A program made the position numbers and the translations under genes. Shown here in pieces: positions 20,649-24,565 of a DNA stretch of 28,001 nucleotides. The DNA is from an uncultured Bacilli bacterium. GTDB taxonomy: Bacteria > Bacillota_I > Bacilli_A > RF39 > UBA660. The notes beneath the pieces were generated by a model. It saw nothing but the letters and a program-made list of their open reading frames with translations. It was not told the origin of the DNA and did not search any database. The first letter of the stretch is position 1. The number at the start of each line of letters is the position of its first letter. The stretch covers positions 1-28,001 of the forward strand of contig CANQFH010000001.1 of assembly GCA_947598425.1 (NCBI GenBank), written 5' to 3'.

Positions 20649-20762
20649 AATACTACTCCTTTATTTATATAATACTAAAATATTACTAATAATTAAAGAA
20701 TTTTAACTTTTTAATATAAGTATAAATGTCTTGTTATTTAACAAAATAATAATGTGATAAAT

Positions 20763-22169
20763 ATGGCAAATAATTTAAAAAAATATAATAAAAAAAGAAA
20801 CTTTAATAAAACTAAAGAACCAATTGGTAAAAAGAAAAAATCTTCACAAAAATTAAGATTTGTAGTGCAACATCATTTAGCAAGAAAAGATCATTATGAT
20901 TTACGATTAGAATGGAATGGAACAATGAAAAGTTGGGCAATACCTAAAGGGCCTTCATATAATCCTAAAGATAAAAGACTTGCCATCATGGTTGAAGATC
21001 ATCCCATTAGTTATCGTAATTTTGAAGGTGTAATACCAAAGGGTGAATATGGAGCAGGTACCGTTATGGTTTGGGATGAAGGTTATTGGGACGCTATTAC
21101 TAAAATAAATAAGTCATTTAACACGACCATGTTTAAATTTATTTTAAAAGGTAAGAGATTAAAAGGGGCTTGGACATTAATTAATTTTAAAGATGATAAT
21201 TGGTTACTTATAAAAGAAAAAGATGAATATTATGAATATCAAGATATTAAAAAATTAAATAAAAGTATTAAAACCAATAGAACTTTTACAGAAATAAAAA
21301 ATAATGTTACTAATACTAAGACATCAATTAAAAATAATATTATAGATAATATCACCATAACTAATCCTGATAAGGTAATATTTGATAAGCCTTTAATTAC
21401 TAAATTAGATTTAGCAATATATTATCATAAAGTAGGTAAAAGAATGTTACCTTTTATAAATAAGAGAATTATAAGTACGATAAGATGTCCTGAAGGAATC
21501 AAAAAAGATAAATTTTTTCAAAAACATTTAGATAATAACAATAAGGGTATTGGAAAGATAATATTAGAGAATGATAATAATAATAAAGAAGACTATTATT
21601 ATATAAAAGATATAAGTGGTCTTATTAGTGAAGTTCAAAGAAATAGTTTTGAGTTTCACACTTGGGGCAGTTTAGTTAATAAGTTAGAACATCCAGATAT
21701 TATGGTATTTGATTTAGATCCAGATGAAAATTTAAGTATTGCTAAAATACGTGAGGGAGTTAAAGATTTAAAAAGTATATTAGATGAATTACAATTAAAA
21801 AGTTATTTAAAAACTAGTGGTGGTAAAGGTTATCATGTAGTTGTACCAATTAAAGAAAAAATGACTTGGAAAAAGTTTAGAGAAACCGCTAAAAACATTG
21901 CTAAAATAATGGAAATAAAATGGCCTGATAAATATACTAGTAATATAAGAAAAAATAAAAGAAAGGGTAAAATATTCATTGATTGGGTGAGAAATACCAG
22001 ATCATCTACTTCAGTTAGTCCTTATTCAATTAGATTAAGAAATAATTGTCCGGTATCTATGCCTATTGCATGGAGAGAATTAGATAAGATTAAACCCAAT
22101 GAGATTGGGATTAAAGATGCTATTAAAAGATTAAATAGAAAAGATCCTTGGAGTGATTTCTTTGATTAA
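20763..22169 (+). CDS. ligD: LigD-family 3'-phosphoesterase plus primase-polymerase fusion, no ligase domain
   Basis: PE: KRNF.KT.EP, HHLARKDHYDLRLE, SWAIPKGP, EDHP, GEYGAG. POL: TNPDK, FDLDP, KTSGGKGYH, FIDW.RN, VSPYS. No KxDG ligase motif. Confidence 0.88.
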   Translation: MANNLKKYNKKRNFNKTKEPIGKKKKSSQKLRFVVQHHLARKDHYDLRLEWNGTMKSWAIPKGPSYNPKDKRLAIMVEDHPISYRNFEGVIPKGEYGAGTVMVWDEGYWDAITKINKSFNTTMFKFILKGKRLKGAWTLINFKDDNWLLIKEKDEYYEYQDIKKLNKSIKTNRTFTEIKNNVTNTKTSIKNNIIDNITITNPDKVIFDKPLITKLDLAIYYHKVGKRMLPFINKRIISTIRCPEGIKKDKFFQKHLDNNNKGIGKIILENDNNNKEDYYYIKDISGLISEVQRNSFEFHTWGSLVNKLEHPDIMVFDLDPDENLSIAKIREGVKDLKSILDELQLKSYLKTSGGKGYHVVVPIKEKMTWKKFRETAKNIAKIMEIKWPDKYTSNIRKNKRKGKIFIDWVRNTRSSTSVSPYSIRLRNNCPVSMPIAWRELDKIKPNEIGIKDAIKRLNRKDPWSDFFD

Positions 22170-22188
22170 ATAATTATTTTATACATGC

Positions 22189-22217
22189 AAAAAGATGTTT
22201 TTTTCAACATCTTTTTT
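22189..22217. terminator. Bidirectional intrinsic terminator between convergent genes
   Basis: AAAAAGATGTT-TTTTTC-AACATCTTTTT(T); T tails on both strands. Confidence 0.75.
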
Positions 22218-22218
22218 A

Positions 22219-23811
22219 TTAACTTATTGATAAGACTAGTCGGAAACCAACACTAGTATCCACGTTGCCATCACCAGCACCAAAGTAGAACTGGCCGGTC
22301 AAAACTCCGTTGTTCCAATTACCACCACGACGGAACCAAGGGTGGGAAACGACAACAAAATACGAGGCATCGGCATACCAACTATTATGATTTCGATCAC
22401 TATTGTCACTATCTTTAAATGCAAAGAATGGTCCCATTTCTCCTGTGGCATCACCTAAGATTCTTTTGTCATAAGAATTTTCACTACTATCTGCAGCATA
22501 AACATCAAAGTAATCTTTATATTTTCCTGTTAAATCTGTATCATTATCAAAACCACTATTTCCAGTATTTCCACTTATATATGAAGATACATATTCATAA
22601 GCACCTCCAGACATATCATACACTCCAGTGATATTTCCTGTGGTACTGGCTAAATAGCCCGTTGCAGTATTATATGGTTGAGATTTTCCATCATCACCTG
22701 TACTTTCTGTTCCTGGATTTGTGCTTTGATCAGCATTATATGAGGAGTATCCGGTTTTATATGTTTTGTTATTATTTATATTTATTTCTCCACCTATTCC
22801 ATAGGATGAGTGTGATAGATATGCTACTGCTCCCCATTCAGTATTCTTCATCATATGACTTTTTAATTCTATTTTATAGTTATATGCTGACATAAAGAAG
22901 TTCTTTACTGTAGCTTTTCTCCATGAGTATACATTTGGTTTTATGATTATTTTTGTTGAATCTTGTTTGTTTTGTTCAGCTCCTTGTGTAGTCCATCCTT
23001 CTGGTGTTATTTGAGTTTCATTTTCTCCATCTTGGTTATATCCTGTTTCAAATTTTCCTACCCAGATTCCATTTAATTCTATATCTCCTAAGGTAAATGC
23101 TGGATGAATTAAATAGTCGTTTACATTTATACCTGTACCTCCACTTGTTCCACTTTTTTTAGTTGTACTATCAACAATTACATGATTTGTATCTCCGAAT
23201 ACCACTTCTATTATTCTAGAATTATTTAATAATTTTCTTATTGCATATTGGTCACCAGTATCTTCTTTTATATTTGCTATATCACTAAACGGAATAACTT
23301 TATTATAATCCCCTGTGTTCCATATTTTATATTTATATCTTGGGATCCATACAAAATAACTTTCTATATCTTTTTCATCTATTTCATCTCCAGTAGAATA
23401 TTTTGTCTTTGCTTCATCTACTAATATTACTGCATTCGCCCATCTCTTTTCACTATAATTATACCATTCTGTATATAAATTGGCATATTTTACTGTTCCA
23501 TCTGGATCTATTGTTACTGGTATTAATCCTTGTTCTGAACCTTCTTTACTTAGTACTGGATCTGCTCCATTTAGTATTGGATCAACCCATTTTGTTGTAC
23601 TAACCCCACTTCTTTCATATAATTCATCTATTGATTTTTGAACATTTTCATAATCTCCATGACTTTCAGTATTATCATAACTTACTTCTTCACTATCTAT
23701 TGCAGCTATGTTGTCTAATGCGTATACACTTCCAATTGATAATACTAATCCAATTAATATTCCTACTATTAATTTATAATTGTTTTTTAATGTTTTAGAT
23801 ATTCCCTTCAT
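22219..23811 (-). CDS. Exported/anchored protein with C-terminal FGE-sulfatase/C-type-lectin-like domain; putative DGR target
   Basis: N-terminal signal/TM; HPAF, WVGKFETG, NTEWGAVAYL, GNITGVYDMSGGAYEYV, WFRRGGNW...GFRLV at the C-terminus. Confidence 0.75.
   Translation of the reverse strand: MKGISKTLKNNYKLIVGILIGLVLSIGSVYALDNIAAIDSEEVSYDNTESHGDYENVQKSIDELYERSGVSTTKWVDPILNGADPVLSKEGSEQGLIPVTIDPDGTVKYANLYTEWYNYSEKRWANAVILVDEAKTKYSTGDEIDEKDIESYFVWIPRYKYKIWNTGDYNKVIPFSDIANIKEDTGDQYAIRKLLNNSRIIEVVFGDTNHVIVDSTTKKSGTSGGTGINVNDYLIHPAFTLGDIELNGIWVGKFETGYNQDGENETQITPEGWTTQGAEQNKQDSTKIIIKPNVYSWRKATVKNFFMSAYNYKIELKSHMMKNTEWGAVAYLSHSSYGIGGEININNNKTYKTGYSSYNADQSTNPGTESTGDDGKSQPYNTATGYLASTTGNITGVYDMSGGAYEYVSSYISGNTGNSGFDNDTDLTGKYKDYFDVYAADSSENSYDKRILGDATGEMGPFFAFKDSDNSDRNHNSWYADASYFVVVSHPWFRRGGNWNNGVLTGQFYFGAGDGNVDTSVGFRLVLSIS
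22240..22380 (-). other. Putative DGR variable region (VR)
   Basis: Hand count over 22241-22380: 71/140 GC and 20/140 coding-strand A, versus 45/140 GC and 52/140 A in the preceding 140 nt; encodes RGG.W...G.F.F...G......GFR. Confidence 0.65.
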
Positions 23812-24275: not shown

Positions 24276-24313
24276 ATTATATCACAAAAAATACAATTTG
24301 TAATACAATTTGT
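24276..24313. promoter_or_regulatory. Divergent promoter region with a 12-bp tandem repeat (candidate operator)
   Basis: AATACAATTTGT twice (24290-24301, 24302-24313); minus-strand TGa-TATAAT at 24281-24276. Confidence 0.55.
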
Positions 24314-24367: not shown

Positions 24368-24565
24368 ATGGAAAAGTTTAAATTACCGGATATTAGCAAG
24401 GAAAAATCAGTCTTAAAAACGATAAGAATCAAATATAGTACTTTATGTAAAATTGAAGAATTATGTCAAAGTAATAACATGTCTGTTAATAGATTAATTA
24501 ATGAATGTTTAGAATTTGCTTTAAATAACATTGAAGATGATGTTAAAGAAAAGATAGGCATATAA
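24368..24565 (+). CDS. Ribbon-helix-helix (Arc/CopG-like) DNA-binding protein
   Basis: KTIRI beta strand followed by helices ..KIEELC..NNMSVNRLINECL; AAGGAG RBS. Confidence 0.78.
   Translation: MEKFKLPDISKEKSVLKTIRIKYSTLCKIEELCQSNNMSVNRLINECLEFALNNIEDDVKEKIGI

Follow-up and report, generated by a model that had tools for sequence, protein, structure and literature searches.

The window, by which we mean the whole 28,001-nt stretch of DNA analysed here, carries at positions 22240–22377 of its minus strand what is very probably a DGR-type variable region (VR), located at the C-terminus of a membrane-anchored or exported protein of C-type-lectin fold. The original prediction of a DGR target, which had been made from the letters of the window, proves correct in substance: the fold of the encoded protein, its paralogues, the variation at codon positions 1 and 2, and the presence of DGR cassettes in congeners all bear on it. 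The VR and the features surrounding it are collected in Table 1.

Table 1. Location of the target gene, its variable region and neighbouring features in the window
Feature	Position	Strand	Basis
Target gene, 530 aa	22219..23811	-	ORF
Variable region proper, 46 codons (Y479-R524)	22240..22377	-	Paralogue alignments, TR adenines of congener G017, composition
Small partner gene, 146 aa, N-terminal hydrophobic segment	23811..24251	-	ORF
Promoter-like site, ATTACA-17-TATAAT with TG	24276..24304	-	Consensus scan only
Hairpin flanked by A/T runs, between the convergent LigD-like and target genes	22190..22216	.	Read from sequence
Divergent 65-aa ORF	24368..24565	+	ORF

Results

A GC-rich, A-poor segment at the 3′ end of the target gene

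The last 167 nt of the target gene are 46.1% GC and 18.6% A, compared with 30.6% GC and 43.3% A in the remaining coding sequence, and the 147 nt of codon columns 72–120 (49 codons from Y479) reach 49% GC and 16% A. The abrupt rise in GC and drop in A that had been predicted is thus real, although its claimed magnitude (51% GC, 14% A) was slightly too high. Third-position A occurs in 2 of the 46 codons of the VR (GGA and CGA), which agrees with the 2 of 47 counted before; it occurs in 6 of the last 47 codons of the gene when the final six are included, and in 238 of the 475 codons outside the VR. Across the 930-kb genome, 150-nt windows with at least 45% GC make up 0.2%. About half of those at or above 46% are paralogous copies of the VR segment, and tRNA genes account for 4 of the 9 other GC-rich regions that were checked. 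That the compositional switch is not due to chance is hereby confirmed. Horizontal gene transfer was ruled out as the source of the GC jump, because the jump covers a mere 140 nt within one gene and is shared by 14 paralogues.

At the protein level, the predicted scaffold is found as PWF.RGG.W..G...GQF.F....G......GFR, with related versions at the end of each of the 14 paralogues. When these are aligned, the VR is GC-rich and A-poor throughout, with NNY hypervariable codons alternating with invariant scaffold. One GGA codon within the VR retains its A in 14 of 14 copies, though a change there would be synonymous; this adenine is either absent from the template repeat (TR) or seldom mutated. 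The GGTTTCCG end is conserved and a hairpin lies past the stop codon, with IMH and IMH* being distinguishable only with a TR.

Fourteen paralogues, six of them with an identical scaffold

The genome is represented by a 930-kb MAG of 105 contigs (25.1% GC, 87% complete, no contig below 2.5 kb). Paralogues with a common scaffold, anticipated by the original prediction, do exist in it: besides the window's own, there are 13 further copies of the 3′ segment, at 68–81% nucleotide identity, giving 14 in total. All 13 end ORFs of the same family, nine of which are truncated on the 5′ side by a contig end. The possibility that any of the 14 copies is itself the TR was rejected, as their homology extends far upstream into the coding region and every one of them ends an ORF.

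In the nucleotide alignment of the 14 paralogues, codons that vary at positions 1 and 2 and keep C or T at position 3 stand amid an invariant scaffold. Six copies, on contigs C60, C23, C21, C14, C83 and C12, are scaffold-identical, with 103 of 147 columns invariant and 44 variable. Variation falls where the DGR reading would place it, with 39 of the 44 columns that vary among the six copies lying at codon positions 1 and 2, versus 40 of 68 just upstream (Fisher p=7e-4; the upstream comparison spans 49 complete codon columns). The 105 nt immediately upstream of the segment differ pairwise by 8–30 nt among the same six copies. Such an identical scaffold next to diverged flanks is the product of repeated copying from a single template. 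The six-copy scaffold is, admittedly, defined from the very copies on which it is measured and hence partly circular, which is why an independent control, namely a mask made from the TR of the congener G017 (see below), matters.

Further afield, a pattern scan with the six-copy scaffold gave 0 matches in JGI metagenome contigs and 0 in IMG/VR. In Logan contigs from rabbit-gut runs, which had ~3x depth and were crowded with paralogous and related sequence, the bins over the VR were the most thinly covered, a pattern that speaks neither for nor against microdiversity in the VR.

Cassettes and templates in congeners

A TR and a reverse transcriptase (RT) beside homologues of the target, with A-specific TR/VR mismatches, were found in two genomes of the same genus, G011 and G017. 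In both, a small gene, the target, the TR, a MutS_I-like gene, bAvd and the RT follow one another, and the cassette-adjacent target homologues are 52% identical to the window protein. The MutS_I-like proteins measure 125–140 aa and the RTs 345–351 aa; bAvd of the G011 cassette matches PF22296 (E=1.9e-16), the G017 cassette contains ORFs that match the G011 accessory genes in size, sequence and order, and the translated RTs of both genomes contain IGNxTSQ and YMDD.

Between the TR of G017 and its adjacent VR, 12 of 148 positions are mismatched, and at 11 of these the TR has an adenine. Besides the TR, this genome holds 16 family members. The single TR matches eight VRs, seven of which reside on other contigs, with mismatches at 0–6 of 114 non-A and 11–20 of 34 A positions (L049, contig C18; L051–L067), and the remaining eight family members show 13–37 non-A mismatches to it. 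In G011, a TR match exists only for the cassette-adjacent VR, the nine remote paralogues having 18–68 non-A mismatches. More mismatches go with lower GC3 and higher A3 in both genomes, which amounts to a graded decay series.

The adenines of the G017 TR provide a mask that is independent of the window's genome. Over the 14 paralogues, columns at G017 TR adenines have a mean entropy of 1.30 bits and all others one of 0.50 bits (Mann-Whitney p=1.6e-10). Within the scaffold-identical set of six, these adenines account for 28 of the 44 columns that vary but for 6 of the 103 that do not (Fisher p=2e-13).

Between the target and the MutS-like, bAvd and RT genes of G011 lie four tandem units of ~460–560 nt (L048:5400–7340, contig C3), each composed of a ~150-nt TR-like repeat and a conserved flank of ~300 nt. 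Compared among themselves, the four TR copies show 11–23 differing positions. The adjacent VR looks chimeric, showing adenine-only differences to unit 4 over its 5′ two-thirds and to unit 1 over its 3′ third.

Surveying the genus, we find the family in 12 of 42 genomes, with up to 18 copies each, and an RVT_1 gene in 31 of 42.

Fold and family of the target protein

The N-terminus of the target protein is a hydrophobic helix (signal or anchor); a beta-rich part follows in the middle, and the C-terminal domain is C-type-lectin/FGE-like. The VR spans residues 479–524 of 530, at the C-terminus of the C-type-lectin fold. The AlphaFold2 model of the protein, with 119 homologues in the alignment, has a pLDDT of 88.9 and a pTM of 0.87. 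Searched with this model, Foldseek ranked TaqVP first (5vf4, E=1e-8), followed by the Mtd variants 1yu0–1yu4 and then by FGE and Treponema TvpA (2y3c, rank 20). Judging from this ranking, the predicted structure is the C-type-lectin/FGE fold as used by DGR targets, and the CLec-like fold that had been proposed from the sequence is upheld by the model and its matches to TaqVP and Mtd. At the sequence level, the sole chain matched by phmmer among PDB sequences was again 5vf4 (E=0.0018), which is the DGR variable protein of Thermus aquaticus. Pfam reported no family for the full protein at E<=0.01, and FGE-sulfatase (PF03781) stayed below threshold on the C-terminal part (15.5 bits versus a cut-off of 23.3 bits, E=0.014); some homologues exceed this cut-off (e.g. 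P0041, with 28 bits). Kinship to FGE-sulfatase is at the level of the fold.

The family comprises more than 7,900 proteins at E<=1e-5, nearly all of them singleton clusters at 90% identity. They stem from uncultured Bacilli MAGs from rabbit, human (Hadza) and mouse gut, and the runs that contain parts of the window are rabbit-gut metagenomes. Among 79 family loci in other uncultured Bacilli MAGs, only 3 had an RT nearby, in flanks of up to 6 kb retrieved on each side. Fifteen of these 79 loci contain at least two family genes each.

Discussion

A proposed route of diversification and its missing cassette

How might this VR have been written? A cassette made up of a TR, a MutS-like gene, bAvd and an RT, shown in relatives and presumed here, would transcribe the template repeat. 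The TR RNA would be reverse-transcribed with misincorporation opposite adenines, and target genes would then receive a copy of the cDNA at their 3′ end, with the outcome that non-A positions stay identical to the TR and AAY codons become randomised to NNY. The window copy would have been written by the same DGR process and would later have drifted from the current scaffold, mainly by synonymous C-to-T changes; AT-biased neutral drift is expected to act on a VR that is no longer overwritten.

Neither a TR nor an RT, both of which had been expected from the prediction, turned up in the window's own, 87%-complete assembly. The RVT_1 HMM gave no RT match in this genome, tblastn with the RT, Avd and MutS-like proteins of G011 found none there, and blastn against the assembly for TR-like non-coding copies returned neither such a copy nor any match restricted to the VR part. 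None of the other GC-rich windows of the genome resembles the inferred TR. With no RT, Avd, MutS-like gene or TR in the assembly, the template is therefore inferred rather than seen. From the perfect scaffold that six copies share, differing only at hypervariable columns, we infer that a TR and RT would have acted in trans in this genome very recently.

These components are probably still present but unassembled; otherwise they have recently been lost. We rate an assembly gap the likelier of the two because homogeneity among the six VRs equals that of the TR-matched set in G017, because the MAG is 87% complete and has no contig below 2.5 kb, and because RT genes in this genus commonly lie 0.5–2 kb from a contig end. 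The alternative, wherein the core DGR was lost from the lineage and all 14 VRs are remnants of a once-active element, is less probable but has precedent. Apart from the window's own assembly, which yields no RT, Avd or TR, the congener G015 likewise has 14 copies and no RVT_1 match at 91% completeness, and orphan targets have been published for Treponema denticola, some isolates of which keep targets without an RT or TR (Nimkulrat et al. 2016, PMC4891356). Against loss, the six VRs still agree at 103 of 103 scaffold columns, in spite of flanks that differ at 8–30 of 105 nt, and the G017 set that they equal in homogeneity belongs to an intact cassette. Besides, a MAG of this completeness, in 105 contigs of which none falls below 2.5 kb, may well have dropped the locus: with RT genes so often 0.5–2 kb from a contig end, the TR/VR repeat would break up cassette contigs, which then easily go missing.

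As a more general observation, many RT genes of the genus lie within this distance of a contig end, and there are some whose entire contig measures just 2–3 kb. It appears, then, that the TR/VR repeat is where short-read assemblies break, and MAGs may be losing DGR cassettes systematically.

Is the window's own copy still a target?

Of the 103 columns invariant in the six-copy scaffold, 18 are mismatched in the window VR. Third positions hold 13 of these mismatches, synonymous changes likewise make up 13, and C-to-T changes 10. Its scaffold is at least 17 of 97 columns away from that of any other paralogue, a distance about equal to the divergence of its own flank. GC3 is 0.45, as opposed to 0.53–0.59 in the six copies, and falls within the decay series of G017 and G011; A3 is 0.08, and AAY codons are intact (e.g. 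AAT TGG AAC AAC). Despite its 18 scaffold mismatches, the copy fits the hypervariable pattern, and it resembles the mildly diverged class in G017. Since the window VR is off the scaffold at 18 of 103 columns, mostly through synonymous C-to-T changes, a lapsed target appears, on balance, a better description of it than one currently being rewritten. The original prediction had spoken of a surface protein diversified in trans, or formerly so. Family and congener evidence lend weight to this claim as a whole, and, as the window VR is not homogenised with the six paralogues, 'formerly' is the likelier half where the window copy is concerned.

One might object that the window VR is a current target of a second TR with a scaffold of its own. 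Its retained TR-like design (the low A3, the GC3 of 0.45 and the intact AAY codons) would suit such a template, as would the occurrence of multi-TR cassettes both in the genus (G011, with four different tandem units) and in the literature (PMC6642488). We nevertheless consider this unlikely: the window's scaffold variants occur in no other paralogue, the nearest scaffold being 17 of 97 columns away; the differences are mostly synonymous C-to-T changes, as in AT-biased decay and not as in a designed alternative template; and the extra TR units of G011 come without separate matched targets.

Explanations that dispense with a retroelement altogether, in which a paralogous surface-protein family has its C-terminal loops under diversifying selection and its scaffold kept by gene conversion, draw on the size and fast evolution of the family (with its more than 7,900, mostly singleton relatives at 90% identity) and on the many members far from any RT, but are highly improbable, given that gene conversion would homogenise the variable columns as well, that selection leaves unexplained both the C/T third positions of hypervariable codons and the GC-rich, A-avoiding synonymous scaffold codons in a 25%-GC genome, that the variable columns coincide with adenines in a relative's TR, and that congeners contain direct TR/VR pairs with A-only mismatches.

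Relation to known DGR systems

Remote DGR targets have been catalogued before, with up to seven in Treponema, as have cassettes with MutS-like and Avd accessory genes (both PMC5758913). Trans activity at incomplete DGR loci was shown by metagenomics (PMC10907252), and cassettes with more than one TR were reported (PMC6642488). With remote and orphan targets already documented, what we describe is thus no new kind of system. Like the DGR targets of Treponema, the one studied here is a surface protein with a C-terminal VR on a CLec/FGE-like fold; as in Treponema, one TR serves several dispersed paralogous targets in trans, and some genomes have targets but no RT or TR. Unlike in Treponema, whose cassette is of the HRDC type, the cassette of this genus combines a MutS-like gene with bAvd, corresponding to architecture D of Wu et al. 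(PMC5758913), the host belongs to an uncultured gut Bacilli lineage with genomes of ~1 Mb, and copies are more numerous, at 10–18 per genome. The likeness to Treponema TvpA is confined to the fold (Foldseek rank 20), with negligible sequence identity.

TaqVP (5vf4) and Mtd of BPP-1 (1yu0–1yu4) similarly present a VR on the CLec fold of a DGR variable protein. Identity to them is, however, as low as 11–18%, and TM-scores amount to just 0.25–0.41 because the query has extra N-terminal domains. Mtd, moreover, is a tail-fibre protein of the Bordetella phage BPP-1, whereas the window target is a chromosomal bacterial gene. With Legionella pneumophila and other MSL-containing DGRs (architecture D, PMC5758913), the congener cassettes share a small MutS_I-like protein, Avd and the RT; in contrast to Legionella, the target is not of the LdtA lipoprotein type, and no cassette was found in the window's own genome.

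Three features go beyond the routine: the many copies that such very small genomes carry, the graded decay of ex-targets, and a congener's TR array of four units. We hereby assign a mechanism to these surface proteins of uncultured small-genome gut Bacilli, a family that is very large (more than 7,900 relatives), has no name and for most of its members draws a blank in Pfam. That reduced genomes commit 10–18 genes to DGR-type lectin heads is in itself worth noting; these lectin-head proteins are probably adhesins or receptors for the surfaces of host or neighbours. Our analysis further implies that a DGR target is recognisable from sequence alone even when the MAG comes without a cassette. The recognition signs are homogenised, A-avoiding paralogue scaffolds together with variable columns that match the TR adenines of a relative, and a decay series in GC3 by which current targets can be told from lapsed ones.

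It is tempting to extend this to the genus as a whole. Tentatively, and with doubts that outweigh our confidence, we propose a genome-wide repertoire in which a single cassette rewrites many dispersed paralogous lectin-fold surface genes in trans, sometimes with up to four different tandem TR-spacer units used combinatorially, and in which unmatched copies decay along a GC3 gradient, in a birth-and-death turnover. If true, the window copy would be either a decaying ex-target or one kept by a second TR unit.

Genomic context of the target gene

Directly upstream of the target lies a small partner gene, whose stop overlaps the target start by 1 nt. In G011 and G017, too, a homologue of this gene lies ahead of the target, measuring 163 and 150 aa, respectively. 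The two-gene operon proposed earlier is therefore supported, both by the overlap and by conservation of the small gene in relatives. Upstream of the small gene, the promoter-like site at 24276..24304(-) is a candidate promoter of the operon; the number of promoter-like sites returned by the consensus scan in the region is not above shuffled expectation. At the opposite end, the hairpin between the convergent genes is probably a shared bidirectional terminator, which the consensus scan missed because its stem has few G-C pairs; other paralogues also end with a hairpin and a T-run. The divergent 65-aa ORF had been labelled an RHH regulator, a label that found no Pfam support, the ORF giving just a weak, unrelated EnY2 match (E=0.0047).

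The convergent neighbour on the other side (positions 20754–22169, plus strand) encodes a LigD-like protein with phosphoesterase and primase-polymerase domains, in which Pfam detected no ligase domain. An exact look-up of this protein with either start codon, in search of other strains, returned no record.

Pfam likewise assigned no family to the small partner. Its own family has 22 tblastn matches in the 930-kb genome, exceeding the 14 targets. The C-terminus of the small partner (…VQCAIDELY…) resembles a motif near the N-terminus of the target (…VQKSIDELYERSG…).
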